Shown: positions 49,123-62,406 of the stretch, piece by piece
Position numbering within the stretch: the first letter of the stretch is position 1
How the letters are laid out: each line of letters begins with the position of its first letter
Assembly (NCBI GenBank): GCA_038210275.1
Contig: JBBQWV010000002.1
Location: 134,141 to 198,140 of the forward strand
Length of the DNA stretch: 64,000 bases
Direction of reading: 5' to 3'
Origin: Candidatus Kapaibacterium sp.
GTDB taxonomy: Bacteria > Bacteroidota > Ignavibacteria > Palsa-1295
Translations under genes and position numbers: made by a program
The notes under the pieces: model-generated
Seen by the model: only the letters and a program-made list of their open reading frames with translations
Told to the model about the DNA's origin: nothing
Databases searched by the model: none

Positions 49123-49674
49123 TTACTCAGGCTCAACCTGACCATAATCCAGTTCAACAGGTGTCTTCCTGCCGAAGATAGAAACCTCGACTTTGAGCTT
49201 TTGCTTATCGTCATTGATCTCTTTGATCTGCCCTTGGAATCCGTTAAAAGGTCCATCAATGACCTTAACAGGCTGTCCTAAGAAGTACTTCACCTCCGGA
49301 GACTCCGTATCCTTCTTTTCTTCGACCTTACCCAAGATGCGACGCATCTCATCGGCATGAAGAGCTGTCGGGCGATCTTTTGAAGGACCAACGAAGCTCA
49401 CGACACTTGGAATCGAGAGGATAATATCAATGATCTTCTTATCAATCGCGGCTTCCAAAAGGATGTAGCCGGGAAGAAAGCTCTTTGTTTTGACGCGTTT
49501 TTTTCCATCGCGCACTTCGAACACTTTCTCGACGGGGATAACCACTTCCAAAACACGGTCAGCAAGCCCACGGCGCTTCATCTCATCTTCGATGTATGCC
49601 TTGACCTTATTTTCATGCCCGGTGAAACACCTAAGGGCATACCATTTCATTTGTGTCGCTTGCAGTTCGCTCAT
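49123..49674 (-). CDS. nusG: transcription termination/antitermination factor NusG
   Basis: NGN domain (KWYALRCFTGHENKVK) and C-terminal KOW (GQPVKVIDGPFNGFQGQIKEI). Confidence 0.9.
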   Translation of the reverse strand: MSELQATQMKWYALRCFTGHENKVKAYIEDEMKRRGLADRVLEVVIPVEKVFEVRDGKKRVKTKSFLPGYILLEAAIDKKIIDIILSIPSVVSFVGPSKDRPTALHADEMRRILGKVEEKKDTESPEVKYFLGQPVKVIDGPFNGFQGQIKEINDDKQKLKVEVSIFGRKTPVELDYGQVEPE

Positions 49675-49689
49675 TTGTGGAGTTCGGTC

Positions 49690-49926
49690 TTAGAGTGAAT
49701 AAACAAGGCGCAGGACGACTTCGAAGATCTTATCCACGCCAAAGACGAATGCCGAAAAAAGAACGCATAATCCAAGCGTCACAAGCGTTGCGTCAAGAAG
49801 CTCTTCGCGCGTCGGCCATGTAACCTTCTTCATCTCCTTGTTTACGTCGATGAAGAAACCAATGGTCTTGTCTTTAAGACTCTTTCGCTCAGGAGCGAGT
49901 TGTGTTGAAACGAGTGTATCTGCCAT
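49690..49926 (-). CDS. secE: preprotein translocase subunit SecE
   Basis: 78 aa with a single C-terminal TM helix (TLVTLGLCVLFSAFVFGVD). Conserved position between tRNA-Trp and nusG. Confidence 0.85.
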   Translation of the reverse strand: MADTLVSTQLAPERKSLKDKTIGFFIDVNKEMKKVTWPTREELLDATLVTLGLCVLFSAFVFGVDKIFEVVLRLVYSL

Positions 49927-49930
49927 AATC

Positions 49931-50019
49931 CTTGATAAAAAAGCTAAAAGCTAGAAGCTAAAAGCTAAAAAAAATAGATCGTTGGGCGTCAAACTTTTAG
50001 CTTTTGGCTTCTAGCTCTT
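49931..50019. repeat. long A/T-rich inverted repeat (about 30-bp arms of AGCTAAAAGCT-type units) between tRNA-Trp and secE
   Basis: AAAAGCTAAAAGCTAGAAGCTAAAAGCTAAAA ... TTTTAGCTTTTGGCTTCTAGCTCTTCGCTTTT. Could form a stem of about 30 bp in the minus-strand transcript. Confidence 0.55.
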
Positions 50020-50032
50020 CGCTTTTGTATCG

Positions 50033-50105
50033 CACGTCAGGAGGGAATTGAACCCCCAACCAACGGTTTTGGAGACCGCTACTCTACCAATTGAGCTACT
50101 GACGT
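50033..50105 (-). tRNA. tRNA-Trp (anticodon CCA)
   Basis: Minus-strand sequence ...AGCTCAATTGGTAGAGT.GCGGTCTCCAAAACCGT..GGGGGTTCAATTCCC... Cloverleaf with CCA anticodon. No encoded 3' CCA. Confidence 0.8.
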
Positions 50106-50142
50106 GTCTGAAAGCTGACAGCAACCGCTGGCAGCCTACAGC

Positions 50143-50292
50143 TTATTTGGTCTCTTTGTGGATCTGACGCTTTCTGCAGCGCGAGCAAAACTTCTTGTAC
50201 TCCACACGTCCTGATTGCTTGCGCTTGTTTTTGGTCGCAGAGTAGTTACGCTCTTTGCACTCAGTACATTCTAACGTTATAATGTCTCTCAT
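50143..50292 (-). CDS. rpmG: 50S ribosomal protein L33 (zinc-ribbon type; below the 60-aa ORF-track cutoff)
   Basis: Translation [49 protein letters not shown] closely resembles Bacillus-type L33 ([24 protein letters not shown]...KKYCPRC..HT.HKE.K). AGGA Shine-Dalgarno sequence 8 nt upstream. Confidence 0.85.
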
Positions 50293-50355
50293 TGTCGTAT
50301 TCCTTTCGTAAAAAAAATCTTTGGTAGAGACGCACCATGGCGCGTCTCTACGTAG

Positions 50356-50428
50356 AGCGGGAGACGAGACTCGAACTCGCGACCAACAGCTTGGAAGGCT
50401 GTGACTCTACCAACTGAGTTACTCCCGC
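50356..50428 (-). tRNA. tRNA-Gly (anticodon TCC)
   Basis: Minus strand GCGGGAGTAACTCAGTTGGTAGAGTCACAGCCTTCCAAGCTGTTGGTCGCGAGTTCGAGTCTCGTCTCCCGC. Anticodon loop CTTCCAA. Confidence 0.8.
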
Positions 50429-50507
50429 AAAAACAAACTTAAACTTTAATGCTTAAAAAACTTCTTCCCCATTTCAGCATTAAACTTTCGAGGCGTAGCC
50501 TCGGCAG

Positions 50508-50580
50508 AGCTCACGATCGGGATTGAACCGACGACCTCGTCCTTACCAAGGACGTGCTCTACCAACTGAGCTACGTGAGC
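50508..50580 (-). tRNA. tRNA-Thr (anticodon GGT)
   Basis: Minus strand GCTCACGTAGCTCAGTTGGTAGAGCACGTCCTTGGTAAGGACGAGGTCGTCGGTTCAATCCCGATCGTGAGC. Confidence 0.8.
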
Positions 50581-50586
50581 GACTTG

Positions 50587-50650
50587 GCAAGGATGAAGGA
50601 TGAATGATGAATGATGATTTTTTTTTCATCTTTCATCCTTCATCCTTCAT
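50587..50650. repeat. hairpin built from tandem heptamers (GGATGAA/TGATGAA)n with a T9 loop between tRNA-Tyr and tRNA-Thr
   Basis: GGCAAGGATGAAGGATGAATGATGAATGATGATTTTTTTTTCATCTTTCATCCTTCATCCTTCATCCTTGCC. Near-perfect arms of about 20 bp. Confidence 0.7.
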
Positions 50651-50657
50651 CCTTGCC

Positions 50658-50740
50658 CACGAAGTGGGCAGAGAAGGACTCGAACCTTCGTAGACGTAAG
50701 TCAGCAGATTTACAGTCTGCCCTCGTTGACCGCTTGAGTA
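50658..50740 (-). tRNA. tRNA-Tyr (anticodon GTA, long variable arm)
   Basis: Minus strand GGGCAGATACTCAAGCGGTCAACGAGGGCAGACTGTAAATCTGCTGACTTACGTCTACGAAGGTTCGAGTCCTTCTCTGCCCA. Confidence 0.8.
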
Positions 50741-50843
50741 TCTGCCCATGTTAGCTTCAAAAATAAACTTAAAGCTAAAAAACAAATCCATATCATTTTT
50801 TTACGCTCTTCCCTATCAAACCCATGAGACAAAAGCCTCAATG

Positions 50844-50916
50844 AGCCGGCAGACGGACTCGAACCGACGACCTGCTGATTACAAATCAGCTGCTCTACCA
50901 ACTGAGCTATGCCGGC
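50844..50916 (-). tRNA. tRNA-Thr (anticodon TGT)
   Basis: Minus strand GCCGGCATAGCTCAGTTGGTAGAGCAGCTGATTTGTAATCAGCAGGTCGTCGGTTCGAGTCCGTCTGCCGGC. Confidence 0.8.
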
Positions 50917-50968
50917 GTAAAAAATCAAATTCTCTCCCACCAATGTTGGCGGAAGAGAATTTAGCCCG

Positions 50969-50974
50969 ATTATA
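50969..50974 (-). promoter_or_regulatory. candidate -10 element (TATAAT) about 50 nt upstream of the tRNA cluster, with an adjacent imperfect palindrome abutting the tRNA-Thr 5' end
   Basis: CATTATAATC on the minus strand. Palindrome CTCTCCCACCAATGTTGGCGGAAGAG lies between it and the tRNA. Weak, no clear -35. Confidence 0.2.
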
Positions 50975-51071
50975 ATGATTTTCAGGCGTTTCTGGTTCCC
51001 AAAATCGGGTTTTTAACCAAAATAGCCGTAATAATTAAGACATCAACTATGAAAATCTATTGTCAGGATAG

Positions 51072-51788
51072 TTACTGAAAAAGGTTGTATTTTATTATGC
51101 ACCGTATAGCACTGAATCCATCCTTCCAGCCAATTTTTTTTCCTTCTTCGTACCTTCTTCCGTTATAGGATATACCAACTTCAAAGATTCTAAGATTCTC
51201 TTTTTTTGCTAGTCTTGCAATTTTTGCTGTTATCTCAGGTTCAAATCCAAATCTATTCTCCTGTAAAGTGATTCTCCGAAGAATTTCGATGCGAAATGCT
51301 TTATAGCAGGTTTCCATATCAGTAAGATTCAAATTACTGAGCATATTTGAAAGTCTTGTGAGAAACTGATTACCGAGATAATGCCAATAATAAAGCACTC
51401 GATGTGCCTCTCCCCCAACAAAACGAGATCCAAAAACAACATCAGCCTTCCCCTCGACAATGGGTTTAAGAATTTTCAAATATTCTCGTGGGTCATATTC
51501 TAAATCTGCATCTTGAATAATTGCTATGTCCCCTGTTACAGCTTCAAACCCTGTTTGCAAAGCAGCCCCTTTGCCACGATTGACATTGTGGCTGATTATT
51601 CTAACATTCGGAATATCCTTGAACACCGCCAATGACAGTAAGGTGTTATCAGTCGAAGCATCATTCACGACGACAACTTCTTTTTCAAGACCTAATGCAC
51701 TCAGATCTTGCGACAAGACAGTTTTAAGAAGTTCAGCAACTGAGCTTTCTTCGTTGTAAACCGGAATAATAATTGATAATAATTTCAT
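51072..51788 (-). CDS. GT2 polyprenol-phosphate glycosyltransferase (dolichol-P-mannose/glucose synthase-like; CsbB/GtrB type)
   Basis: [29 protein letters not shown] (DxD) motifs of GT2 Dpm1/GtrB-type enzymes. Confidence 0.75.
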
Positions 51789-51853
51789 CGCTTTTGCAAT
51801 TAGTTGCCGTCTTAACAAATACAAACATAAGCAATGTTTGTATCAATACTTCC

Positions 51854-54307
51854 TTACAATAATGTTCGGCGGTTTTTTTGCTTTCGCCGAATTAAGAAAA
51901 TTCCTGATATACTCAAAAGAAATGTGATGGCACTGATGCTATAGCCTGCAGTATAAATATCCGGTTCGAAAATAAAAGTGATCGTTGATTTGCCGGAATT
52001 GATAGGAACTCCGCGCATACAGTAGTTGACTCTATAAATAGGCGTTTCTTCTCCATTAACATAACATTTCCAACCTGGATAATAAGAGTCTGTAATAATT
52101 AATAACCCCTTAGTGCTCGATTCGGCTAGAATTTCAACTTTCTCATTCTCATTTGTAGAAATGCGTACAGAATTTGATCCGGCTTGCCCTAAACTTGTAT
52201 CAAGAGGAGCATCTCCCTTTGTAAAAATGGCTGTTGTCCCATCAAAATTATTCTGTAATAATTCATCTTTGATTTCATTCTCGGTATTTAATATTTTACA
52301 TTTATATGCAATATAGGCACGGGGCTTAGAAAGAAGATTCTCATAGATCTTTACACCATCTGCGGAATAAACCGGGCGAAGAAAAGGCGAAGGAAGTTCT
52401 TTCTTTCCAGCAACAATATATTTTACGTTTACCAAACCAAGTAAATGCAAATCAAGTGAATCATAGCCTACATTTTTGAGATAGAAAGTAATAAAAGAAC
52501 GGCTCGTTAGGCTTTCATATCCATGTATATCATTAATTTTATAAACATTAGAACTATTTCGAATTAAAATGAAAGGATCTTTAGAAGCATCTCGCCACAC
52601 AATAAATCTGCTATCCGAAGAATCGCTACGCAAAAAATTGGAGATTGGGTTTTGAGGGTAAATAGGAAATTTTCCTTGGTCTATAGTTGGAAGCCAGATC
52701 CTTGAAAAAGTAAAAAGATCGACAATAGTCAGGAGTAAAATTATAGGGATAGCTTTTTTTTCAGCGAGTTTTCCACGGAGAAAATATGTAAGTGTAAGTA
52801 AAGAAACAATTCCTAATACGATCGGAAGCCATAACGCCAATGATGGTGTCGAATAGTAATCCAAGGTCTTGCTAATTCTTTCCATCATCCAACTTTCATT
52901 TCCCGCTCCGAATGCAGATTCTTGTATTTTCGGAATAAGGATATTTGAATACTTTCTGAGGAGCATTTCATAATTAAGATTAATATATACTGCTACTCCA
53001 AATAAAACAACAACCATACCGATAAATAAAAATTTTGTCCATCGGAAAAATCTTTTAAATGAATTTCGCAATTCCTGATTGCTAAGTAGGGATTGGAAAG
53101 CAACCGCCCCAATTATTGAGAGCGCAAAAGAGGCAACAATAAAGATTCTGTGGTATAAATAATAGTAAAGCGGTGTAGCGATCGGAAGTAAAATGGCACT
53201 AATACCAAGAACAATGAACGGACGTATTGATTTATTTTTCCAAAGAATAAAACACCCCCAAATTGCAAACAGGAATGGAAGGAAGCTGATAGCGCCATTA
53301 AAATTCATGGGGTCAAGATTTGCGATCTTCTTAAGATTAAATATTTGTGCATCGCCACTGAGAGTCGGGAATGCAAGAGTTGCAAGAAAAGGGATGCTCA
53401 GAATACGATGAAGAATTGTATATTCAGAATAAATACTCGAAGAGTTCAAACTTCCCCCACCAGTGATCGTCCTGAAAAATAACTCCAGTGTAGGAAGCCA
53501 CATTATTGCGGATAATCCAAACGAGACAGCACCGATTAGGACGAAAAGACCAACTCGTCGAAAGAATTTATTTTCATTAGTTCTATCAGGATATAGTAAT
53601 AGCACTCCTCCGACAATAAGAAGGGCATAAAAAGCAGTTTGTAGGGTACCTCCAAAAAAACAAAATGCAAGGAAAATAGATGAATAAATAATATTTTTAT
53701 TATCTCCGGTATTAAAATATCTCAGTATCATTAATACGACAAATGGCACCCAGCAAAAAGAGGCAATGATCCAACGATTTGCTGCAGTTGAGATAAACAT
53801 ACTGTTCAGCATATATGCTGAAGAGAAAAGCAGATTAATTAATTGATGAACTCCAAAAAATCGTAAAAGAAAAAGCATTCCAATGCCTGCAATCAACAAT
53901 TCAAGTACTGTTTCCCAATGAATTGCATCAACAGCATTCAGCCAGAATAAAAGGATATTAAACACATCAAAATTATTTGCCATCGTTTCCGCATATTCCG
54001 GGTACCCTGCAAGAATATGAGGATTCCAATAGGCAAGTTTTCCACGCTTGAGAGCTTCTTGAGTCTCAATCTTGTATGGATAGGTCTGTGCGAGTCCGTC
54101 TAAAAAATAATGGTTTTGAGATTGTGGGTTATGATATTCTCCGTTAAAAGGAGCAGTCATCGTATCAAATAGATCTGACGGAAGAAATGTCTTGCCGGCA
54201 AAAAGATAAGGTAAGAAAGTCAAACAAAGCAATGCAATAAGAGCAACAATAAGCCACCGAAGTGGATACGGTCTGTAATTTGTACCGGGGAAAATACTGG
54301 TTGTCAT
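51854..54307 (-). CDS. YfhO-family polytopic membrane protein (putative GT-C glycosyltransferase), paralog 1, 817 aa
   Basis: About 13 TM segments with a large C-terminal extracytoplasmic domain. Conserved N-terminal block DLFDTMTAPFN..Y...Q.HY..DGLAQ..PYKIET..A..RG.LAYWNPHIL.GYPEYAE is shared with the next gene. Confidence 0.6.
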   Translation of the reverse strand: MTTSIFPGTNYRPYPLRWLIVALIALLCLTFLPYLFAGKTFLPSDLFDTMTAPFNGEYHNPQSQNHYFLDGLAQTYPYKIETQEALKRGKLAYWNPHILAGYPEYAETMANNFDVFNILLFWLNAVDAIHWETVLELLIAGIGMLFLLRFFGVHQLINLLFSSAYMLNSMFISTAANRWIIASFCWVPFVVLMILRYFNTGDNKNIIYSSIFLAFCFFGGTLQTAFYALLIVGGVLLLYPDRTNENKFFRRVGLFVLIGAVSFGLSAIMWLPTLELFFRTITGGGSLNSSSIYSEYTILHRILSIPFLATLAFPTLSGDAQIFNLKKIANLDPMNFNGAISFLPFLFAIWGCFILWKNKSIRPFIVLGISAILLPIATPLYYYLYHRIFIVASFALSIIGAVAFQSLLSNQELRNSFKRFFRWTKFLFIGMVVVLFGVAVYINLNYEMLLRKYSNILIPKIQESAFGAGNESWMMERISKTLDYYSTPSLALWLPIVLGIVSLLTLTYFLRGKLAEKKAIPIILLLTIVDLFTFSRIWLPTIDQGKFPIYPQNPISNFLRSDSSDSRFIVWRDASKDPFILIRNSSNVYKINDIHGYESLTSRSFITFYLKNVGYDSLDLHLLGLVNVKYIVAGKKELPSPFLRPVYSADGVKIYENLLSKPRAYIAYKCKILNTENEIKDELLQNNFDGTTAIFTKGDAPLDTSLGQAGSNSVRISTNENEKVEILAESSTKGLLIITDSYYPGWKCYVNGEETPIYRVNYCMRGVPINSGKSTITFIFEPDIYTAGYSISAITFLLSISGIFLIRRKQKNRRTLL

Positions 54308-56760
54308 TAAATCGTATTTCTCTGCCGTTTTTTAAATATCAGAATACCTCCGAAAAGAAGCAGCGCTGTGATCGAGCTAATGCCTATGCCAGCCATAAAA
54401 ATATTCGGTTCAAATTTAAAAATGATCTCCGATTTACCGGCATCAACAATCACGCCTCGCATACAATGATTAACTCGGTAAATAGGCGCGGGCTTCCCGT
54501 TAATAGAACATTTCCAACCGGGGTAATAGGTATCGGTAAGAATAAGAATACCTTTCGTTTGGGTTTCGGTATTAATCCTAATCTCTTCATTTTCTGATCT
54601 GTCGAAGTGAATGCTGTTCTTTCCATCGGAATATTCTCCGAGATCATTCGGCGCATCTTCTTTTGTAAATACCGCTTCGGAGCCATCAAAATCTGAGCGA
54701 AGTAATTCGCTTGCCGCATCAATTTCTGTAGCAGCTACTTTAGTTTTAAATGCAAAATACGCTCTGGGTTTACAACGCAAGTTCTCATAGATGGTCATAC
54801 TATCAGCAGAAAACACCGGTTTCAGATTTGAAGTGGTAATCTGCCTTTTTCCGATAATCACATATTTTAGATTTGCAAGACCGAGCAGACGCAGATCAAG
54901 TGAATCACTCATGTTATGAAATCTATGAAAAAGACTCATACTTCGGTTTGAGCAGACTTCATATCCGTGAATATCATTTATTCCGTAGATATTCGAAGCA
55001 TTTGATGCAAGAATATAGGGATCCTTTGATGCGTCACGCCAAACGGTAAACCTGCTGCCTGATGAATCATTCTGTATGAATGAGACAATCGGATTCTTCG
55101 GATAAATTGGAAACTTCTCTGTATCAATGTTTGGCAGCCACGTTCTTGCTGAAACAGAAAGCTGCATCATTGTCAACACTAATAATAGCAGCAGTAAATT
55201 TCTTTGTGTGATTTTATTGTTCTGATAATATGCAATAGCTATAACAATAGCTATTGCTCCCAAGATCGGAAGCCACAGAGCCGGAGAGAAGGAGGAGTAA
55301 TAATGCAATGTCTTCGGGATTCTCCCATACATCCACGATTCATTTCCACTTCCGAAAGCTGAGCCGGGTACTTGTGGAGCAACATACTGAGTAAATTTGG
55401 AGAGAACCGTTGTGTAGTTGAGCGCGATATAAGCCCATACAAGTGCAAGAGCTGCGAATAATATTCCGAGAGTAACTTTTATCCATCGAAAGAACGCAGA
55501 GAATGAAGCTCGTACAATTGCGTTTCGAATAAACGATTGAAATGCTACTGCGCCGATAACACAAAATGCAAAACTTGAGACAATAAAAAACCGATGATAT
55601 ACAAATGAGAAAAGCGGTGTTGCGATTGGAAATAATACTCCGCAAAGTGCAATAATAATAAATGGGCGCATTGTTTTATTCTTCCATAAAGAATAACAGC
55701 CCCATAGCGCGAACAAAGCAGGTAAAAAAGCTATCGCACCATTGAAATTAATAATATCAACTCCGGCTATTTTCCGAAGATTATAGGATTGCGAATTCCC
55801 TAGCACTTCCGGAAAAAAGAACATAATGAGAAGCGGCAACGATAGCAGACGCTGCTTAATCGTGTAAGCATCATAGATATTTGTAGAGTTTAAACTTCCT
55901 CCTCTAAAAATAGTTTGGAAAAGCAGCTCTAACGTAGGCAGCCATATTATCGCGGAAAGAGCAAAAGAAACTATGCCAACAAAAGAAAGTATCCCAACCC
56001 GACCGAAGAATTTATATTTTAAATTACTTGAAGGATAGAATAAAATAATAATGGCTACAATGAATGCTGCAAAGACGGATGTTTGGAAATTACCTCCTAA
56101 AAAAGTCAGCGCAAGAAATAGTGATGCATATAATATATTTTGTTTTTGTGAGGTATAGAAATACCGCAGCAACATTAATACGACAAATGGAATCCAGCAG
56201 AATGATGCAATCGGACACCGGTAATGTGCGCTGGAAATGAACATACTGTTAAGCATATACGCACTTGCAAAGATCAGATTCACCAAGGGATCAACTCCGA
56301 TAAATCGCAAGAGGAGAAGCATACCGATCCCGGCAAGGAGTAATTCAAGCACTGTCTCCCAATGAATCACATCAACTGGACTAAACCAAAGAAGCAAGAT
56401 ATTAAAAACGTCGTAATTATTTGCCAGCGACTCAGCATACTCGGGATAACCACCTAATATATGAGGATTCCAATATGCAAGTGTTCCTCGCTCAAATGCT
56501 TTCTTAGTCTCTATCTTGTAAGGAAGTTCTTGGGCAAGTCCGTCAAAGACGTAATGATTTTGTGCTTGAGATGGAGCGTATTCCGTATTGAAAGGTGCTG
56601 TCATCGTATCGAAAAGATCGGCGGGCAGCATTGTCATCCCACCGAAAAGATACGGAAAAAAAGTAATGCAGATCAAACCTGCAAGTCCTGCGACGAGCCA
56701 TCGCAGTCTATACTGTTGGGGTTTAATCCCAGCTATTAATTCAGGCTCTCTCACTTCCAT
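54307..56760 (-). CDS. YfhO-family polytopic membrane protein, paralog 2, 817 aa
   Basis: Same length and collinear similarity to the downstream paralog (for example ...NGKPAPIYRVNHCMRGVIV... versus ...NGEETPIYRVNYCMRGVPI...). Stop overlaps the paralog start by 1 nt. Confidence 0.6.
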   Translation of the reverse strand: MEVREPELIAGIKPQQYRLRWLVAGLAGLICITFFPYLFGGMTMLPADLFDTMTAPFNTEYAPSQAQNHYVFDGLAQELPYKIETKKAFERGTLAYWNPHILGGYPEYAESLANNYDVFNILLLWFSPVDVIHWETVLELLLAGIGMLLLLRFIGVDPLVNLIFASAYMLNSMFISSAHYRCPIASFCWIPFVVLMLLRYFYTSQKQNILYASLFLALTFLGGNFQTSVFAAFIVAIIILFYPSSNLKYKFFGRVGILSFVGIVSFALSAIIWLPTLELLFQTIFRGGSLNSTNIYDAYTIKQRLLSLPLLIMFFFPEVLGNSQSYNLRKIAGVDIINFNGAIAFLPALFALWGCYSLWKNKTMRPFIIIALCGVLFPIATPLFSFVYHRFFIVSSFAFCVIGAVAFQSFIRNAIVRASFSAFFRWIKVTLGILFAALALVWAYIALNYTTVLSKFTQYVAPQVPGSAFGSGNESWMYGRIPKTLHYYSSFSPALWLPILGAIAIVIAIAYYQNNKITQRNLLLLLLVLTMMQLSVSARTWLPNIDTEKFPIYPKNPIVSFIQNDSSGSRFTVWRDASKDPYILASNASNIYGINDIHGYEVCSNRSMSLFHRFHNMSDSLDLRLLGLANLKYVIIGKRQITTSNLKPVFSADSMTIYENLRCKPRAYFAFKTKVAATEIDAASELLRSDFDGSEAVFTKEDAPNDLGEYSDGKNSIHFDRSENEEIRINTETQTKGILILTDTYYPGWKCSINGKPAPIYRVNHCMRGVIVDAGKSEIIFKFEPNIFMAGIGISSITALLLFGGILIFKKRQRNTI

Positions 56761-56772
56761 GCATATTTCTTT

Positions 56773-58233
56773 TTATTGCATTCCAACAAAAAACTTTCTT
56801 TCCTTTTGTTTATTCAAAAACGCTTGAACGCTAAGAAGAGCGTCAGTATTTTTATCGACATACTCTTGATGCAATTTTTCGCTTACTTCAGAAGTAAATT
56901 CATCCGCAACAAATTTTGTCGAGAACTCCCCATTTTGAAATTTTTTATTTTCCATCACGAATCGTGCAAATGGTATAGTCGTTGAAACTCCAACGATTCG
57001 CATCTCAGCAAGCGCGCGCTCCATACGCTTAATTGCTTTTGCACGATCTATATCCCATACAATTAACTTGCTCAAAAGCGAGTCGTAATAACCCGATACT
57101 TCCAAGCCTGAAAAAAGTCCGCTGTCATTGCGAACAAATGCTCCGCCCGGATGACGAACATACGCGATCTTTCCTAAACTCGGAAGGAAATCATTCCAGA
57201 CATCTTCGGCTTGAATTCGTGCCTCGATTGAATGACCTCGCGCTATTATATTTTTCTGCTGCAATCCGAGTTTCTCGCCTTCAGCTATGCGGAATTGCTC
57301 GCGTACAAGATCCATACCTGTGACAAATTCTGTAACCGGATGCTCGACCTGCAATCTTGTATTTACCTCAAGGAAATAATATTTTCCTTTATCGTCAACA
57401 AGAAACTCGACTGTTCCTGCTCCCTCATACTTTGCTTCGCGAATAAGCGAGATCGCGGCTTCTCCCATTTCTTTTCGCATTGCCTCATTCAAAGTAACTG
57501 ACGGCGATTCTTCGATCAGCTTTTGATTGCGTCTCTGTATCGAGCATTCACGTTCGCCGAGATGAACAGCATTACCATGAGAATCAGCAAGTATCTGAAA
57601 TTCGATATGTCGCGGACTGGTAATATATTTTTCTATATATACTCGGTCGTCACCGAATGAACTCAGCGCTTCGCTCTTTGCGCGTGTTAGACCTTCGCTA
57701 ATTCCCTCTTCCGATTCAACTATTCGCATTCCCTTTCCGCCGCCGCCTGCTGCGGCTTTAAGCATTACCGGGTAGCCGATCTTCTTTGCTACTTCTTTTG
57801 CTTCTGCTTCACCCTGCAATGCTTCTGTTGTTCCGCCCGGAGTTGGTACGCCGAGTCTCTTTGCAAGAGTACGTGCTTTGGTTTTATCACCGAGCAAGTC
57901 AATTGCATCGGGGGTCGGACCAATAAATTTTATTCCAGCCTTTGCACATTCCTCGGAGAAAAGTGCATTCTCCGAAAGAAACCCATATCCGGGATGCACA
58001 GCATCTGCTTTTGTTTTTTTGGCGATTGCAAGAACTTGAGCATGATCAAGATAGGATTCTTTCGGAAGATTTCCCGACAGAACGTGAGGCTCTTCTGCTT
58101 CTCGCACATAAAGAGCATTCGCGTCATGCGGCGAATGAATCGCAATCGAATGATAGCCGCATTCATGCGCTGAACGAATGACACGTCTAGCGATCTCAGA
58201 ACGATTGGCAATGAGAATATTTTTGAGTTTCAT
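56773..58233 (-). CDS. accC: biotin carboxylase (acetyl-CoA carboxylase AccC / two-subunit pyruvate carboxylase PycA-type), 486 aa
   Basis: MKLKNILIANRSEIARRVIRSAHECG, ATP-grasp domain, C-terminal biotin carboxylase domain. No biotinyl (BCCP) domain. Confidence 0.85.
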   Translation of the reverse strand: MKLKNILIANRSEIARRVIRSAHECGYHSIAIHSPHDANALYVREAEEPHVLSGNLPKESYLDHAQVLAIAKKTKADAVHPGYGFLSENALFSEECAKAGIKFIGPTPDAIDLLGDKTKARTLAKRLGVPTPGGTTEALQGEAEAKEVAKKIGYPVMLKAAAGGGGKGMRIVESEEGISEGLTRAKSEALSSFGDDRVYIEKYITSPRHIEFQILADSHGNAVHLGERECSIQRRNQKLIEESPSVTLNEAMRKEMGEAAISLIREAKYEGAGTVEFLVDDKGKYYFLEVNTRLQVEHPVTEFVTGMDLVREQFRIAEGEKLGLQQKNIIARGHSIEARIQAEDVWNDFLPSLGKIAYVRHPGGAFVRNDSGLFSGLEVSGYYDSLLSKLIVWDIDRAKAIKRMERALAEMRIVGVSTTIPFARFVMENKKFQNGEFSTKFVADEFTSEVSEKLHQEYVDKNTDALLSVQAFLNKQKERKFFVGMQ

Positions 58234-60735
58234 TTATTTCAATTCTACGATTGTTACCCCCATTCCGCCCTCTGTTCGTTCGCCAAATCGGAATGTTGCC
58301 ACAACGGGATTGGATTTTAGCGATTGATGAATTCGTCTGCCGAGCGCTCCTGTTCCGGTGCCGTGAAGTATTTCTACTTTATCCAAGCCCCGCGCGTTCG
58401 CCGTTGCAATAAATTTTTCTACTTCCACTACGCCTTCATCACCATACTTGCCGCGTAAGTCAATTCGCGGACTGAATGCCTCGTCGTAAAAAGTACCGAA
58501 TTGCTTCATCTTTCGCTCGTCGTGCCTCGCTTCTTTATGGGAGATCACTTCAAGCTGTGAAAGCTTTGCTTTCAGTTTCATTGAGCCAAAAGCAACTTCG
58601 GCTTCATTACCTTTTACTGATAGTACTTCGCCGGTTTGTGCGGGATTTGAAAGAAGTCTTACGTTTGCTCCAATTTTTAATTCAAGATTCTTTTCTACCG
58701 TTGGTGCACTCGCTGTTTTATGCTCATCAACTTCCTTTACGATCTCTGCCAACTCCATCTTTTGCTTCGCGCGTAAATCCGAAAGTTCGGCTGTCTGTTC
58801 TTTTACATACTCTTTCGCAACCGGAGCAGCAGCTTCACGCGCTTCGCGGATCGCTCGTTCAACAAAACTATTTGCTTTTGTCAAGAGCGCATCTGCCTGA
58901 TTTGAGGCTTCTGCAAGAATCTTTTTCTTTTGAGAAGTAATCTCTCCGCTTAACCTCTCATATTCAATTCGTTCGATGCGCGATCTGCCAAGTTCTTTTT
59001 CTATTTCTGCTTTCTTTGCTGAAAGCTCCTGCTCTTTCACGCTCATCGAATGGATAAGGTCTTCAAGCCTCGACGATTTCCCTCCTGCAATCTCTCTTGC
59101 ATGAGTGATGATACGTTTCGGAAGTTCATAACGCTCTGCAATATCGAATGCATGAGATGAACCGGGTATGCCAATACGAAAACGGTACGTTGGCTTGAGA
59201 TCGCTTTCACTGAATTCCATAGAGCCGTTAATAGCTCCCTTATATGTCTCAGCAAATGCAGCAAGTCTTCCGTAATGAGTTGTAGCAATGGTAAAACCTG
59301 CGTTTTTTGTGAGATGCTCAAGAATACTTTCTGCGAGTGCGCCACCTTCTTCCGGCGCCGTTCCGCTTCCGATCTCATCAAGAAGCACAACGCTATACTC
59401 ATTCGCCTGCTCAATGATTTCTTTTAATGAACGGATATGCGAACTGAAGGTGGAAAGATCATCGGCGATAGATTGCGCGTCGCCGATGTCAACATAAAGT
59501 CCATCAATTGAAGGAAGGACAGCATCAGGCATTGCAGGAATCGGAAGACCTGCATGACTCATCAATAAAATTATTCCAAGTGTTTTAAGAAGAACTGTCT
59601 TTCCTCCGGCATTCGGTCCTGTCAAAACGACTGTTCTCTTTTCGTCATCAAGTGTAATTGAGAACGGTACTGTCTTCTCTCTTCCAAGTTTTGTAATCAG
59701 GAAAGGATGCCGCGCTTCATGAAGCACGATAGTACTATCTTTCGGATCACGATGCGATTGGATGGTTGGCGTCGATGACTCTATAGAGATCGCATAGCGG
59801 CTTTTTGCTGTCACTGCTTCAAGATGCCCTGCCACTTCAAGTGAATGCAGCATCACAGGCACTGAGGAGCGAATACGTTCAGTAAGTTCACGGAGGATTC
59901 GATCGATCTCGCGCTGCTCTGCAAACTCATAAGAACGCAGTTCATTGTTGAGTTCGATAGTTTCCGCCGGCTCGATGTATATCGTTTGTCCTGTCTGCGA
60001 AGCAGAGTGAATCATGCCCGCTACTCTTCGTTTATGCTCACTCTTGACCGGAATTACCGATCTTCCATCACGCTGAGTGATAATATTTTCCTGAAGCAAG
60101 TCGTCTTCGGTAAATTTCTTTATCAGCGATGCAAGTTTAGTACGAAGGCGTTCACCTGTAGTGACAATGTCGCGGCGAATGCGATTGAGTTCAGAACTTG
60201 CAGAATCTCTAATTGATCCATTCTCTTCAAAGACAGAATCAAATGCCATTTCAATTAAACGGTCTTCGAAGAGATGCACTGCTGACCGCCAAATCGTTGG
60301 TGCAACCTTTGTTCTTTTTGCAAAAAAATCACGAAGTAATCGCATCCCTTTCAATGTTCGGAGAAGCGGCAGACCTTCATCTATATAGATGGTGCTTCCA
60401 TCAATATCAACTTTATGAAGAATGCTGCGAATATCATGGATTCCATCGAAGTTCGGAATTTCACCTGAGCCGATCAGTATCCGAATCTCATCTATCTCCG
60501 CAAATGAGTCCGTGATCTTCTCGCGATCACGTTTGGGAACAAGTTCTTTCGCAAGCGATAATCTTCCAAGAGATGAATGCGCAAACCGCAAGTGTGCGGC
60601 AAGGATTTCATCATACTGTAGAACCTGCGCAGCACGTCTGAACTGATGCGGAATGTCCCGCAAAAGCTGTGTGCGCAATTGATCGGTTGGGATATTTACG
60701 CGATCTTGTTCGGAGAAATCTGTTTCGTCTGCCAT
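58234..60735 (-). CDS. mutS2: endonuclease MutS2 (MutS domain III/IV ATPase plus C-terminal Smr)
   Basis: Walker A VLTGPNAGGKTVLLKT. C-terminal Smr domain IDLRGKYGDEG...ILHGTGTGALG. Confidence 0.9.
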   Translation of the reverse strand: MADETDFSEQDRVNIPTDQLRTQLLRDIPHQFRRAAQVLQYDEILAAHLRFAHSSLGRLSLAKELVPKRDREKITDSFAEIDEIRILIGSGEIPNFDGIHDIRSILHKVDIDGSTIYIDEGLPLLRTLKGMRLLRDFFAKRTKVAPTIWRSAVHLFEDRLIEMAFDSVFEENGSIRDSASSELNRIRRDIVTTGERLRTKLASLIKKFTEDDLLQENIITQRDGRSVIPVKSEHKRRVAGMIHSASQTGQTIYIEPAETIELNNELRSYEFAEQREIDRILRELTERIRSSVPVMLHSLEVAGHLEAVTAKSRYAISIESSTPTIQSHRDPKDSTIVLHEARHPFLITKLGREKTVPFSITLDDEKRTVVLTGPNAGGKTVLLKTLGIILLMSHAGLPIPAMPDAVLPSIDGLYVDIGDAQSIADDLSTFSSHIRSLKEIIEQANEYSVVLLDEIGSGTAPEEGGALAESILEHLTKNAGFTIATTHYGRLAAFAETYKGAINGSMEFSESDLKPTYRFRIGIPGSSHAFDIAERYELPKRIITHAREIAGGKSSRLEDLIHSMSVKEQELSAKKAEIEKELGRSRIERIEYERLSGEITSQKKKILAEASNQADALLTKANSFVERAIREAREAAAPVAKEYVKEQTAELSDLRAKQKMELAEIVKEVDEHKTASAPTVEKNLELKIGANVRLLSNPAQTGEVLSVKGNEAEVAFGSMKLKAKLSQLEVISHKEARHDERKMKQFGTFYDEAFSPRIDLRGKYGDEGVVEVEKFIATANARGLDKVEILHGTGTGALGRRIHQSLKSNPVVATFRFGERTEGGMGVTIVELK

Positions 60736-61248
60736 CTATTTTCTGAGTGTATCGTTCGGCGTCATATCATCATAGACTTCGCTTGATAATTGGCCGACAA
60801 GCGGCTTCAATTGCGAGACCATCAGTGTCGATGATCTTAGAACCATCGGATAAACAATGGATGAGTTTGCAGATCTTGTGGAAGGCAATTGAAAGATTCG
60901 TAGAAATCCAAAAAGCAAGCCAAGCAAAAGAACAGCTCTGAGAAATCCGAAGATCGCACCAAATATTTTATCAGCGCCAGCGAGAAATCCTTTTTTCGGT
61001 TTGATCCATCTCTTGATGAAACTTGCGATAATCAGGATAATAATAAACAGGATAAAAAATCCTGTTACTGGATGAAGCAACGTGGGACCAACGCCAATTG
61101 CTTTTCCGAACGGAGTTGCAAAAAGTGTCGCAATAATGATCGCCGTGACAAGTACGAGAATTGAAACGAACATAGTGATCGCTCCTTTTTTCCACCCGCG
61201 ATATACCGCGAATAGAAGAAGAGCGACGATTAGGAAATCAAGAATCAT
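60736..61248 (-). CDS. cvpA: CvpA-family membrane protein
   Basis: MILDFLIVALLLFAVYRGWKKGA and four TM helices are characteristic of CvpA. Confidence 0.7.
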   Translation of the reverse strand: MILDFLIVALLLFAVYRGWKKGAITMFVSILVLVTAIIIATLFATPFGKAIGVGPTLLHPVTGFFILFIIILIIASFIKRWIKPKKGFLAGADKIFGAIFGFLRAVLLLGLLFGFLRIFQLPSTRSANSSIVYPMVLRSSTLMVSQLKPLVGQLSSEVYDDMTPNDTLRK

Positions 61249-61697
61249 AACGCTGCTAATTTTTCTTTAACAATTTCCTGAACTAACTTTCCATCGGCTT
61301 TGCCTTTCAGCTCTTTCATCAGAACAGGAATAACCTTATTCGTATCCGCAGCTCCGGTCGCTCCGACTTCAGCGATCACTTCAACTACGCGCTTTTCGAC
61401 TTCTTCGCGAGTCATTTGCTTTGGCAAATACTCTGCGATGATCTCATATTCTGCTTTTTCTTTTTCAGCAAGTTCTGGGCGGTTGTTCGTTTGGAAAAGC
61501 TCCTGCGCCTCCTTGCGCTTTTTTGCAGCAGAGAGAAGCAGCTTTAACTCTTCATCTGCTGTCATTGCGCGGTCTGTTCCACTTTTTTCAAAATCCAAAA
61601 TAAGCGCGCGCAAGCTGCGCAGCGTTTCGGTGCGTAGCTTATCTCCTGATTTCATTGAGGCTGTCAGGTCAGCCGTAATTGTCTCTTTTAATGCCAT
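61245..61697 (-). CDS. yqeY: GatB/YqeY domain protein
   Basis: MALKETITADLTASMKSGDKLRTETLRSLRA matches the YqeY N-terminal motif. 150 aa. Confidence 0.7.
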   Translation of the reverse strand: MALKETITADLTASMKSGDKLRTETLRSLRALILDFEKSGTDRAMTADEELKLLLSAAKKRKEAQELFQTNNRPELAEKEKAEYEIIAEYLPKQMTREEVEKRVVEVIAEVGATGAADTNKVIPVLMKELKGKADGKLVQEIVKEKLAAL

Positions 61698-61731
61698 AAT
61701 TTTTTTTGATTCGAAATCCTAAATTAAAATT

Positions 61732-62406
61732 TTAGAGTCCATTTGGTACGCGAAGTACTGATCCGTTCACTGCTTTGCCTTCATCCGATGCTAAGAACAA
61801 ACAAAGAGCCGCAATATCTTCCGGCTTCGTCCATTTGGGAATATCTTCCGGTGCGCCCCACGATTCATTTGCTTTTGTATGAATCACCGTCGGCACAATA
61901 CAATTCGCATTCACTCCGTACTCTTTCGTTTCAAGTGCAATAGTTTGCGTGAATACAATCACAGCGGCTTTGGCAGCAACATAAGCCGCTTTCTTTGGTT
62001 CGGGCTTTAACGCAGTTTCAGCCCCCATTGTTACTATTGAGCCTACTCCAACCGGTTTCATTAATTTCGTCGCTTGCTTGACGCAATGAAATGTTGCAAG
62101 GATATTCAGATCCATCACATAACGAAAATCCTCTGTTGAAATTTCCTCATGCGGCGCCCACGGCTTTAAGCCGCCGATCGTTGCAAAGAGCAATCGCGGC
62201 GCACCAAACTTTTGGTTTGCATAATTAAATGCAGCCTCAACTGACGATTCATTTGCACTATCAATTTTCTGAAAAAGGAAGTGCTCATCTCTGAATCCGT
62301 CATCAAATGCATCCATTCCTGCCACGTTCCAGCCCTTACCCAAAAAATACTTTCGCGTGGCGCTTCCGAGTCCGCCGGATGATCCGGTTAAATATAATGT
62401 ATTCAT
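61732..62406 (-). CDS. SDR-family NAD(P)-dependent oxidoreductase
   Basis: TGSSGGLG Rossmann glycine motif. Downstream YVAAKAA (YxxxK) catalytic motif. Confidence 0.65.
   Translation of the reverse strand: MNTLYLTGSSGGLGSATRKYFLGKGWNVAGMDAFDDGFRDEHFLFQKIDSANESSVEAAFNYANQKFGAPRLLFATIGGLKPWAPHEEISTEDFRYVMDLNILATFHCVKQATKLMKPVGVGSIVTMGAETALKPEPKKAAYVAAKAAVIVFTQTIALETKEYGVNANCIVPTVIHTKANESWGAPEDIPKWTKPEDIAALCLFLASDEGKAVNGSVLRVPNGL

Follow-up and report, generated by a model that had tools for sequence, protein, structure and literature searches.

Results

Gene content of the locus

In the window, as we call the whole 64-kb stretch of DNA analysed here, a candidate three-gene glycosylation module lies on the minus strand in the order YfhO-A, YfhO-B and GT2, followed by a strong terminator-like hairpin. 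The features of the locus, with the evidence for each in brackets, are:

54307-56760, minus strand: YfhO-A, the upstream 817-aa YfhO-family predicted GT-C paralog (Pfam and alignment)
51854-54307, minus strand: YfhO-B, the downstream 817-aa YfhO-family predicted GT-C paralog and the more diverged copy (Pfam and model)
51072-51788, minus strand: 238-aa GT2 (GT-A fold), a predicted polyprenyl-phosphate sugar synthase (Pfam and fold matches)
50926-50963, minus strand: terminator-like hairpin just before tRNA-Thr (hairpin scan)
51822-51829, minus strand: TATGTTTG, a TAnnTTTG-type -7 element (motif search)
56773-58233, minus strand: 486-aa biotin carboxylase (AccC-like), a co-directional context gene (Pfam domains)

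The ORF list confirms two paralogs of equal length (817 aa) with the GT2 gene downstream, as described in the original prediction, and the two YfhO ORFs overlap by 1 nt at a TAATG junction (...ATT TAATG ACA...). In the ORF list, the GT2 frame begins at a TTG and spans 51072-51824 (250 aa). Translation almost certainly initiates instead at the ATG at 51788, giving 238 aa, because homologs are 227-241 aa long and an identical 238-aa protein is on record. The hairpin at 50926-50963, with a stem of 17 pairs, a 4-nt loop and a ATTTTTTACG tail, follows the GT2 stop codon at a distance of 109 nt; no other site within 50800-62600 is as strongly terminator-like, and the hairpin probably ends the transcription unit. 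The element TATGTTTG sits 34 nt upstream of the GT2 ATG and matches the Bacteroidota-type -7 element TAnnTTTG, making it a possible, if weak, candidate for an internal GT2 promoter; the window as a whole shows no enrichment of this motif (60 found versus 54 expected). The same motif also occurs approximately 5-10 nt upstream of tRNA-Tyr and tRNA-Gly.

The biotin carboxylase gene (Pfam Biotin_carb_N, CPSase_L_D2 and Biotin_carb_C) ends 12 nt ahead of YfhO-A. It also adjoins the YfhO gene in locus L081 and in the P0013 and P0016 contigs, and does not in the P0022 contig; this linkage may be plain synteny that does not imply membership of the module. The module stands among a series of housekeeping genes (yqeY, cvpA, mutS2 and accC), and the local context therefore gives no pointer to its substrate. 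The 64-kb window contains no GtrA- or Wzx-like flippase gene, and a small multi-TM GtrA-like ORF was found neither in the window nor beside the GT2 gene in related loci; by analogy with gtcA in Bacillus and Listeria, the flippase may be encoded elsewhere. T9SS C-terminal sorting domains are present in three proteins of the window, which also encodes a TonB-dependent receptor; both features bear out the earlier view of the host as diderm: it is a two-membrane, Kapabacteria-like uncultured bacterium.

The YfhO paralogs

Both paralogs score above the Pfam cut-off of 28.5 bits for the YfhO family (PF09586, GT-C clan), YfhO-B with 52.5 bits and YfhO-A with 38.2 bits, in a match that takes in the C-terminal end alone (80-90 residues; profile positions 746-835 out of 835, or 756-835 in YfhO-A). 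Intermediate relatives, which align with the window proteins over residues ~20-810, match PF09586 at positions 72-629 as well as at the C-terminus, and an hhalign comparison of the clade profile with a Bacteroides finegoldii protein annotated as 'YfhO family protein' gave 99.9% probability (E 8.6e-35) over 727 columns. These intermediate relatives and the hhalign match place the paralogs, as judged from sequence, in the YfhO family over their whole length, membrane domain included, in agreement with the family assignment originally made.

The AlphaFold2 model of YfhO-B (pLDDT 89.2, pTM 0.90) was compared with the PDB using Foldseek. All 11 hits at E<=1e-3 are GT-C enzymes, and the top 17, which include AftD, STT3, ArnT, PglB, EmbA/B and DPY19, are all of this type; ArnT reached a TM-score of 0.55 normalised to the target. 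The C-terminal periplasmic beta-domain gave weak local matches to accessory domains of glycoside hydrolases (E ~0.4). The model thus points to a GT-C fold for the 817-aa proteins, as had been anticipated, and not to an unrelated transporter family.

More than 80 homologs were recovered in a first search and tens of thousands in a profile search, and the long ORFs are therefore not chance occurrences. The family comprises 88,708 cluster representatives and reaches CPR bacteria, Chloroflexota and archaeal MAGs. These three groups are not known to have LPS or teichoic acids. Named close relatives of the window paralogs are Kapabacteria or Bacteroidota MAGs. Judging from these searches, YfhO-family genes are common rather than unusual in diderm phyla, and the module, although genuine, is a rather ordinary representative of a family that is very large and had been recognised before.

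YfhO-A and YfhO-B are 57% identical (456/805) and 74% similar, with zero gaps. The predicted conserved N-terminal block is evident at residues 33-207, which are 70-74% identical, as opposed to 34-55% in the most diverged stretches. No relative exceeds 56% identity to YfhO-B, whereas values of 58-65% are reached for YfhO-A. The duplication is old, and the saturation of synonymous sites between the paralogs, together with 57% protein identity, indicates purifying selection on both copies. It had been proposed that the two copies reflect two acceptor or sugar specificities, which is not supported: a comparison across genomes finds a single position out of 817 that distinguishes copies of the upstream type from those of the downstream type.

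Among 79 family members from many phyla, D70, W94, G101, R567, D740, W746 and G772 (YfhO-B numbering) are conserved at 96-100%, and W94-N95, G101 and P103 are near-universal; D70, the conserved aspartate expected in a GT-C loop, is kept in 76/79 proteins, compared with 39/79 for D45. Asp70 of YfhO-B corresponds to Asp73 in YfhO-A. YfhO-A retains the residues aligned to D70, W94-N95, G101, P103, R387 and D740-x-YYPGW of YfhO-B, and both paralogs keep every family residue conserved at 95% or above except G341 (Ser in B, Ala in A). Both are probably active and drawing on the same donor, given that each preserves all of the proposed active-site residues. YfhO-A has ~13 hydrophobic segments and a terminal helix followed by KKRQR. 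In YfhO-B, the Arg residues before TM1, R149 after TM2 and RRKQKNRR after the terminal helix place the loop 37-124 and the domain 540-782 in the periplasm. From the model, the topology and the conservation, we infer an active site built from the first periplasmic loop (Asp70, W94-N95, G101 and P103), to which a similarly conserved motif of the C-terminal periplasmic beta-domain (R567, D740-x-YYPGW and R765) probably contributes.

The GT2 enzyme

The GT2 matches Pfam Glycos_transf_2 at 1.4e-33, and the best solved structures for its family profile are Pyrococcus DPMS (3.3e-26), ArnC and GtrB. Its QDADLE segment aligns with DADLQ of DPMS, with D93-A-D95 as the DxD motif. In Foldseek, the model (pLDDT 85.6) matched only ArnC, DPMS or GtrB among its best 20 hits, with TM-scores of 0.64-0.80 over the whole protein, followed by a group of glucosyl-3-phosphoglycerate synthases (GpgS), which are soluble cytoplasmic GT2s. 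Both sequence and fold thus place the protein nearest to polyprenyl-phosphate glycosyltransferases rather than in a cytoplasmic glycan pathway, and the model makes a polyprenyl-phosphate sugar synthase its most likely identity.

The protein has no transmembrane segment (highest 19-residue hydropathy 1.15) and its C-terminus is an amphipathic helix (221-236), whereas GtrB, CsbB and ArnC each have two C-terminal TM helices and Pyrococcus DPMS has four. It falls well short of every NCBIfam equivalog cut-off, including those for AglJ (103.6 bits versus 325), PgfS (70 versus 500), ArnC (67.5 versus 529) and PpgS (56.2 versus 370), and its sugar specificity is therefore not assignable; PgfS is its second-best NCBIfam match, and the PpgS model matches at 3.1e-15. 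The original label of CsbB/GtrB-type is apt for the polyprenyl-phosphate affinity and fails for the subtype: because it lacks transmembrane helices, the enzyme is, by sequence, anchor-less and PpgS/DPM1-like. One homolog, 64% identical, carries a fused GtrA domain (PF04138), and orthologs in Geobacter and Planctomycetes adjoin other GT-C genes (GT87 and PMT_2).

Conservation of the YfhO-GT2 linkage

A YfhO gene followed by the GT2 gene is found in the window, in loci L081 and L002 and in the P0013 and P0016 contigs; the pair is also present in the P0022 contig, where the flanks are quite different. At 16 of 79 loci from other phyla, a GT2 of the same subfamily (at least 140 bits) lies within 10 kb of the YfhO relative, compared with a chance expectation of about 1 for a single-copy gene, a figure that is our own estimate. 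Nitrospirota, Desulfuromonadales, CPR and an archaeal MAG show the pairing too, and the called YfhO and GT2 ORFs overlap in locus L048 (Nitrospirota) and locus L025 (Desulfuromonadales). Some close relatives have YfhO without an adjoining GT2 (the P0029 and P0036 contigs, L003 and L004). The conserved linkage expected under the original prediction is thus observed, and adjacency across unrelated contexts and phyla supports the module reading.

The YfhO gene lies inside a type IV pilin operon at 12/79 loci, two of which also have a short GT2. Distant relatives occur near polysaccharide-type genes (Wzx at 12 loci, GT4 at 19 and PMT_2 at 23), whereas the close contexts examined showed no LPS, O-antigen or capsule genes beside the module.

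Discussion

Proposed mechanism

We consider it likely that the three genes work together as a transmembrane glycosylation module of known design, with GT-A and GT-C components, an assessment that leaves the acceptor aside. As its fold and context suggest, the GT2 (soluble or peripheral) would take a single sugar residue from a nucleotide sugar and attach it to polyprenyl (undecaprenyl) phosphate at the cytoplasmic face; the lipid-linked sugar would be flipped across the inner membrane by a protein encoded elsewhere; and both YfhO GT-C paralogs would use the flipped lipid-P-sugar in the periplasm, a step consistent with their fold, topology and conservation. The candidate three-gene envelope glycosylation module holds up in its YfhO membership, GT-C fold, GT2 affinity and linkage. 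Counting against it are the restriction of the Pfam YfhO match to the last 80-90 residues, the absence of a flippase gene from the window, the close relatives without an adjoining GT2, and a GT2 that lacks the GtrB/CsbB/ArnC anchor and has GpgS among its next fold matches.

Comparison with known systems

The CsbB-GtcA-YfhO systems of Bacillus subtilis, Staphylococcus aureus and Listeria monocytogenes, which carry out GlcNAc glycosylation of LTA/WTA, share with the window a GT2 that charges C55-P and a GT-C of the YfhO family that works outside the membrane. GtcA had been taken for a GT2 in the original prediction; CsbB and GtlA are the GT2s, and GtcA is the putative GtrA-type flippase (PMC8035078). 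In B. subtilis, csbB and yfhO are co-transcribed and the flippase gene lies elsewhere (PMC5836110, PMC8035078). The window differs in having a diderm host in which teichoic acid acceptors are not expected, a GT2 without the two C-terminal TM helices, two tandem GT-C genes in the order GT-C, GT-C, GT2, and Pfam similarity confined to the C-terminal 80-90 residues.

YfhO-family enzymes also O-glycosylate proteins in streptococci, through GtrB/PgtC2 and the Pgf system of S. mutans (PMC12041528), a precedent that had been overlooked. The Pgf operon encodes the GT2 PgfS, the YfhO-domain GT-Cs PgfM1 and PgfM2, and the epimerase PgfE, and the acceptors of Pgf and PgtC2 are extracytoplasmic proteins (PMC12041528). 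With one GT2 and two YfhO-domain GT-Cs, Pgf is the nearest known parallel to the window gene set. The resemblance is one of layout only, as the window GT2 reaches 70 bits against the PgfS cut-off of 500, the window ORF list has no epimerase gene adjoining the module, and the host is of Gram-negative type.

Short (~230-260 aa), anchor-less Dpm1-like polyprenyl-phosphate GT2s that feed a GT-C enzyme are exemplified by human DPM1 and by mycobacterial PpgS (Rv3631), which together with the GtrA-like Rv3632 and the GT-C Rv3779 provides polyprenyl-P-GalNAc for arabinogalactan. The window GT2 is likewise short and anchor-less and matches the PpgS model, but reaches only 56 bits against the cut-off of 370, and its GT-C partner is of a different family. 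The ArnC/ArnT and GtrA/GtrB/GtrC systems of Gram-negative bacteria go through the same three steps, likewise in a diderm envelope; the window GT2 finds its best structural match in ArnC (TM-score 0.75-0.80), and the YfhO model has ArnT among its top matches. Unlike the window GT2, ArnC and GtrB have transmembrane helices, and ArnT and GtrC belong to other GT-C families without the large C-terminal periplasmic beta-domain and terminal helix of the window YfhO proteins. TfpW of Pseudomonas aeruginosa group IV is a GT-C arabinosyltransferase encoded next to the pilin gene and glycosylates pilins; a TfpW-like pilin-locus arrangement is seen only in distant YfhO relatives, and the window module is not near pilin genes.

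Acceptor and alternative explanations

We rank periplasmic or envelope proteins, modified by Ser/Thr O-glycosylation, as the leading candidate acceptor, a preference that is tentative and falls somewhat short of even chances; an envelope glycan or lipid (LPS core, O-antigen, lipid A, capsule or EPS) comes next and other acceptors make up the remainder. We lean towards proteins because the streptococcal PgtC2 and PgfM1 glycosylate proteins (PMC12041528). The 12/79 loci with YfhO in a type IV pilin operon and the spread of the family across CPR, Chloroflexota and archaeal MAGs, groups not known to have LPS or teichoic acids, point in the same direction. The same mechanism acting on a glycan or lipid, comparable to O-antigen glucosylation by GtrC or lipid A modification by ArnT and with the two paralogs decorating two positions or two polymers, is a substantial minority possibility. 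The first-characterised YfhO enzymes modify the teichoic acids LTA and WTA (PMC5836110, PMC8035078), a point that counts against a protein acceptor, as does the occurrence of distant relatives beside Wzx, GT4 and PMT_2 genes typical of polysaccharide clusters; the ArnT fold match (TM-score 0.55) and the weak resemblance of the beta-domain to glycoside-hydrolase accessory domains (E ~0.4) are also in keeping with a glycan or lipid. The lack of LPS, O-antigen and capsule genes in the close contexts examined argues the other way, as do the abundance of the family in lineages not known to have LPS or teichoic acid and the pilin-operon members and streptococcal enzymes, which indicate that proteins, too, are acceptors in the family (PMC12041528).

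A different mechanism would apply if the paralogs were en-bloc O-oligosaccharyltransferases moving an Und-PP-glycan onto proteins, with the GT2 unrelated or limited to building the glycan. A prediction made in a 2026 preprint casts YfhO as the general O-oligosaccharyltransferase so far missing in the phylum Bacteroidota (10.64898/2026.07.27.740950), and the Bacteroidales proteins come from the same broad lineage as the window host, as do its named close relatives (Kapabacteria or Bacteroidota MAGs). The Bacteroides protein also shares with the window paralogs end-to-end homology (hhalign 99.9%, 727 columns), a Pfam YfhO match at the C-terminus only and a C-terminal DxYYPGW-type motif. We nonetheless regard this reading as unlikely. 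Identity to the Bacteroides protein is only ~20%, and its phmmer score of 58 bits to YfhO-A is no higher than those to relatives from Planctomycetes, CPR and Chloroflexota (56-83 bits), which indicates that the two are not orthologs. The Bacteroidales gene lies beside sahH or mtnN-luxS (in Bacteroides as a single copy at the locus, with ahcY upstream and no adjoining GT2), whereas the window ORF list has no sahH or luxS near the module, and the window clade keeps next door a DPMS/ArnC-like GT2, a type of enzyme that makes monophosphate-linked single sugars. The oligosaccharyltransferase role is itself a prediction, as is the pyrophosphate-linked oligosaccharide donor, which differs from the donor in our reading of the window.

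That only one paralog is catalytic, the other being degenerate, regulatory or a scaffold, seems quite unlikely. YfhO-B evolves faster and is at most 56% identical to anything, and in Pgf the main activity is that of PgfM1, loss of PgfM2 causing only a mobility shift (PMC12041528); against this, both copies keep the residues conserved at 95% or above (except G341) and have identical length and architecture, and the saturated synonymous sites at 57% protein identity point to purifying selection on both. Inherited gene order, with the GT2 serving an unrelated and possibly cytoplasmic pathway and the YfhO donor coming from elsewhere, appears very unlikely. It would fit the string of unrelated housekeeping genes, the relatives without an adjoining GT2, and a GT2 that lacks a membrane anchor and has the soluble GpgS among its lower fold matches; yet the pair survives when both flanks change (P0022 and P0013 contigs), is seen again in Nitrospirota, Desulfuromonadales, CPR and an archaeal MAG, and has GT2 orthologs that adjoin other GT-C families or, in one case, are fused to GtrA.

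The specific proposal that the paralogs are diderm periplasmic protein O-glycosyltransferases using a lipid-monophosphate single sugar from an anchor-less GT2 is possible, but on the unlikely side. If true, this would give the streptococcal GtrB/PgtC2 and Pgf systems a Gram-negative equivalent, and the reading would also cover YfhO-GT2 pairs in great number across phyla, among them the pairs located in type IV pilin operons. Such a system would differ from the en-bloc O-glycosylation of Bacteroidota and might complement it.

Elsewhere in the window, the 527-aa ORF at 13956-15539, which had been described as GT-C-like, has ~9 hydrophobic segments. It has no Pfam hit of its own, and the description is plausible by an indirect route: PF13231 (PMT_2), which is a GT-C family, is present in 15 of the 120 homologs listed.

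Organization of the YfhO–GT2 locus

The original prediction, made from sequence alone, was that a GT2 glycosyltransferase and two tandem 817-aa YfhO-family paralogs at 51072-56760 form a three-gene envelope glycosylation module; ORF calling and comparison showed all of its coordinates and features in this region to be correct. The upstream paralog (YfhO-A) and the downstream paralog (YfhO-B) meet at a TAATG junction with one base in common. The true GT2 start is almost certainly the ATG at 51788, as judged by sequence comparison, because an identical 238-aa protein is on record and homologs are 227-241 aa long.

Features of the locus and its flanks (window positions, strand, feature)
56773-58233, minus strand, stand-alone AccC-like biotin carboxylase, 486 aa, no accB adjoining, immediately 5′ of YfhO-A
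54307-56760, minus strand, YfhO-A ORF, 817 aa
51854-54307, minus strand, YfhO-B ORF, 817 aa
51072-51824, minus strand, GT2 ORF as called, from TTG
50963-50926, minus strand, terminator-like hairpin with a 17-bp stem, 3′ of GT2
49123-50916, minus strand, tRNA-Thr, Tyr, Thr, Gly, rpmG, tRNA-Trp, secE and nusG, beyond the hairpin
51822-51829, 50758-50765 and 50434-50441, minus strand, matches to TAnnTTTG (Bacteroidota-type promoter element)

Co-directional genes 5′ of YfhO-A (yqeY-like, cvpA-like, mutS2 and the AccC-like gene) are separated by gaps of 0-12 nt. The AccC-like gene adjoins YfhO in the window and on three related contigs, regardless of differences farther out, but not on a fourth, and the linkage may be plain synteny; we considered it as a fourth module component and rejected it, as the linkage is missing outside the close clade. 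One TAnnTTTG match lies 34 nt 5′ of the GT2 start and the others ~5-10 nt 5′ of tRNA-Tyr and tRNA-Gly, and the motif has no overall enrichment in the window (60 matches vs 54 expected). A sigma-70 promoter scan was uninformative (28 sites vs 26.5 expected). The tRNA-rpmG-secE-nusG cluster is without tuf; in many bacteria this gene separates tRNAs arranged like these from tRNA-Trp.

A TonB-dependent receptor and several T9SS-sorted proteins encoded in the window show the host to be diderm, as had been proposed. Close relatives with names are Candidatus Kapabacteria/Kapaibacterium and "Bacteroidota bacterium" MAGs. Several homologs have T9SS-cargo genes nearby, which we judged uninformative because genes of this type abound in these genomes.

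Family, fold, and conserved residues of the YfhO paralogs

Both paralogs score above the Pfam YfhO (PF09586) threshold, with the match confined to the final 80-90 of the 835 profile positions, and no NCBIfam model matches either protein. Their full-length membership of the family, as judged by sequence, rests on intermediate relatives and on a match to a Bacteroides protein. Relatives in Chloroflexota, CPR, and further phyla can be aligned to residues ~20-810 of the window protein and match the YfhO profile at positions 72-629 (the membrane part) and at the C-terminus, while a profile of the window clade matches a Bacteroides finegoldii "YfhO family protein" with 99.9% probability (E 8.6e-35, 727 columns). 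The clade profile matches 88,708 cluster representatives at E ≤ 1e-3; tightening the cut-off to E ≤ 1e-30 leaves 25,056. Four giant proteins (P0375, P0392, P0422, and P0466; 1506-3051 aa), each with 3-4 separate stretches matching this profile, appear to be fused tandem YfhO units, or YfhO joined to other domains.

A PDB sequence search with YfhO-B gave no match, so that no solved YfhO structure is present in the PDB copy searched. The AlphaFold2 model (41 homologs as input; pLDDT 89.2, pTM 0.90) predicts TM1, a long first loop with two short helices, ~twelve further helices, a mainly beta domain at 540-782, and a last helix at 783-816 (YfhO-B numbering). When this fold was compared with the PDB using Foldseek, all 11 matches at E ≤ 1e-3, and the top 17 ranked, were GT-C glycosyltransferases (AftD, yeast and human STT3, ArnT, PglB, EmbA/B, and DPY19); transporter-like matches had non-significant E-values only, and assignment of the 817-aa proteins to an unrelated transporter family thus found no support. 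The anticipated GT-C fold with a conserved Asp-containing loop was recovered in the model, the residue being D70. The charge distribution, with Arg before TM1, R149 after TM2, and RRKQKNRR after the last helix, places the first loop and the beta domain on the predicted periplasmic side.

Among 79 family members from many phyla, the first loop contributes D70, W94, G101, and P103 to the residues that are 96-100% conserved; the periplasmic domain contributes R567, D740, W746 (within DxYYPGW), R765, and G772. Arg or Lys occupies position 387 in 90% of these members. All are kept in both window paralogs.

History of the duplication

Aligned over 805 residues with zero gaps, YfhO-A and YfhO-B share 57% identity and 74% similarity. 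Identity peaks at 70-74% in residues 33-207, which confirms the conserved N-terminal block reported previously, and is lowest (34-55%) near residues 208-257, 408-457, 483-557, and 683-732. Identity at third codon positions is only 43% along the full length, from which we conclude that the duplication is old; recent gene conversion between the paralogs left no sign in this value, and we rejected it. Both copies, with their conserved residues intact, have been maintained by purifying selection.

It had also been suggested that the two paralogs have two specificities. In a neighbor-joining tree across genomes, upstream copies fall loosely together, as do downstream copies; only 1 of 817 positions is diagnostic of upstream-type vs downstream-type copies, however, and pairwise identities among copies (52-65%) leave orthology unresolved. 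The two copies at the related locus L081, for example, share 64% identity, on a par with that of either to a window copy, and YfhO-B is the more diverged window copy, at most 56% identical to anything. We therefore dropped the view of the paralogs as two conserved functional types; two specificities are possible, without positive support. Tandem YfhO paralogs are common, with 160 YfhO ORFs in 79 loci and up to three in a row (CPR and Margulisbacteria loci).

A short GT2 without a membrane anchor

The GT2 matches Pfam Glycos_transf_2 at 1.4e-33, and its closest solved structures by sequence are Pyrococcus dolichyl-phosphate mannose synthase (DPMS), ArnC, and GtrB. The family profile matches DPMS at 3.3e-26, with QDADLE lining up with the catalytic DAD motif. 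The 20 best fold matches to the predicted structure (pLDDT 85.6) are only ArnC, DPMS, and GtrB (TM-score 0.64-0.80 over the full 238 residues), and soluble glucosyl-3-phosphoglycerate synthases come next. Unlike ArnC, DPMS, and GtrB, the GT2 has no transmembrane helix in either the model or hydropathy analysis, so that it is of the anchor-less PpgS/DPM1 kind rather than the CsbB/GtrB kind originally suggested. Its scores lie well under every NCBIfam equivalog cut-off (AglJ, PgfS, ArnC, and PpgS), and the sugar therefore cannot be named.

The family is strikingly conserved across lineages, with homologs among the matches listed, including Planctomycetes, Phycisphaerales, and Geobacter proteins, being 61-66% identical to the window GT2. 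One homolog, P0205 (366 aa), naturally joins a short GT2 (64% identical) to a GtrA-family (PF04138) membrane domain at the C-terminus; no second fusion of this kind occurs among the 120 best matches. Orthologs in Geobacter and a planctomycete adjoin GT87 and PMT_2 GT-C genes. Taken together, the sequence and fold matches, the GtrA fusion, and the GT-C neighbors strongly favor a role with a lipid carrier over a purely cytoplasmic one.

Conserved linkage of YfhO and GT2

In the close clade, one or two YfhO copies are followed by GT2 in the window, at loci L081 and L002, and on the contigs of homologs P0013 and P0016; on the P0022 contig this order is kept with entirely different flanks (NfeD upstream, MacAB-type genes downstream). 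Some relatives have YfhO without a GT2 partner (the P0029 and P0036 contigs, L003, and L004). Among more distant relatives, a same-subfamily GT2 (≥140 bits) lies within 10 kb of YfhO at 16 of 79 loci, against ~1 case that we estimate by chance for a single-copy gene in a 1-4 Mb genome, and the called YfhO and GT2 ORFs overlap in Nitrospirota (L048) and Desulfuromonadales (L025). The proposed GT2-YfhO linkage is thus conserved, and the module interpretation is supported with the corrections described here. A recurrent cluster in CPR and one Pacearchaeota MAG (L036, L044, L071, L061, and L047; up to three YfhO paralogs per locus) has the order YfhO, ~305-aa GT2 (weak match), short GT2 (~175 bits to the window GT2), YfhO. 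Two of the MAGs with YfhO (L044 and L058) are labelled archaeal.

A phmmer search with the GtrA half of P0205 found no GtrA-type flippase in the window or 80 loci, and a hydropathy screen of the window and the surroundings of GT2 orthologs for small proteins with ≥3 TM segments gave only CvpA-, YdjM-, and DUF2304-like candidates. As no GtrA/Wzx-like gene occurs in the window or beside GT2 orthologs, the flippase step is unaccounted for; the flippase is likewise missing beside the GT2/YfhO genes of Bacillus and Listeria.

Known systems and the nature of the acceptor

CsbB/GtcA/YfhO systems glycosylate lipoteichoic or wall teichoic acid, and GtcA, previously named as a GT2, is the flippase candidate there (PMC5836110, PMC8035078). 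In streptococcal GtrB/PgtC2, a YfhO-family enzyme O-glycosylates Ser/Thr-rich regions of extracytoplasmic proteins. Of the known layouts, that of the Pgf operon of S. mutans comes nearest to the present one: it encodes the GT2 PgfS, two YfhO-domain GT-Cs (PgfM1 and PgfM2), and an epimerase (PMC12041528).

The window itself gives no hint of a substrate. We tentatively regard a protein as a plausible acceptor, a reading towards which three indirect arguments lean: the streptococcal precedent, lineages understood to be free of LPS and teichoic acids, and pilin operons. The YfhO family is abundant in CPR bacteria, Chloroflexota, and archaeal MAGs, and CPR bacteria, Chloroflexota, and archaea are understood to be without LPS and teichoic acids. 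A distant YfhO gene also lies between pilin genes in a type IV pilus/T2SS-like operon at 12 of 79 loci, twice with a short GT2; in L025 and L045 the short GT2 follows YfhO, which suggests pilin glycosylation. The arrangement parallels that of Pseudomonas TfpW, a GT-C in a pilin locus, and we found no paper linking YfhO to pilins. Arguing against a protein acceptor, many relatives are encoded in clusters of polysaccharide type, beside Wzx, GT4, and PMT_2 genes, and the first-characterised YfhO enzymes act on glycopolymers; a glycan or lipid acceptor is only slightly less plausible. A candidate reading that we consider less likely than not is that the window encodes a protein O-glycosylation system of a diderm host, with a lipid-monophosphate sugar as donor.

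The pilin-operon loci (L016, L019, L020, L025, L027, L029, L045, L049, L051, L064, L072, and L010; for example L016:4103-10664 and L025:3-5172) belong to Planctomycetia, Omnitrophota, Desulfuromonadales, Nitrospira, Nitrospinota, Uhrbacteria, and Margulisbacteria MAGs. Their order is response regulators, a ~560-aa gene that we take to be a putative PilB-like ATPase, PilC, pilins (G|FTLIE N-termini), YfhO, and minor pilins.

According to a prediction in a July 2026 preprint, the phylum's long-sought O-oligosaccharyltransferase is Bacteroidales YfhO, whose gene adjoins sahH or mtnN-luxS (10.64898/2026.07.27.740950). At the locus that the preprint discusses, as found in B. finegoldii (L088:2068-6026, NZ_OY725917.1), ahcY is directly upstream of yfhO and there is no GT2. 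This 91-kb record is labelled plasmid 15 and given the type non-mobilizable "plasmid"; it probably represents a piece of chromosome mislabelled in a plasmid collection. Bacteroides YfhO is a full-length homolog of the window proteins with only ~20% identity. Relatives in other phyla are as close to it as the window proteins are, which means that the window genes are not orthologous to it. The YfhO relatives of this lineage fall into at least two deeply separated subfamilies, one tied to a predicted monosaccharide-lipid synthase, which bears on the current question of which enzyme is the Bacteroidota O-glycosylation transferase.

Should the inferred mode of action hold, GT-A/GT-C transmembrane glycosylation systems, studied to our knowledge almost only in Firmicutes, gain a diderm case from the Kapabacteria lineage. 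The comparison shows the YfhO family to be paired across phyla with a highly conserved, anchor-less short GT2. The finding is a sound annotation and not a surprise. The family numbers tens of thousands of proteins, and close relatives already carry the labels "YfhO family protein" and "glycosyltransferase family 2 protein" from public pipelines, correctly at family level; what is new is the member from an uncultured lineage.

A further membrane protein

13956-15539, minus strand, 527-aa protein with ~9 hydrophobic segments and an SDDAFFY motif after the first helix

This protein had been flagged as GT-C-like. It has no Pfam match of its own, and hhalign found no relation to either a PMT_2 neighbor alignment or the YfhO profile; 15 of the 120 homologs listed for it nevertheless carry PF13231 (PMT_2). 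The indirect support from this homolog survey makes it a probable third enzyme of GT-C type in the window, which could then use the same lipid-linked donor as the YfhO paralogs.
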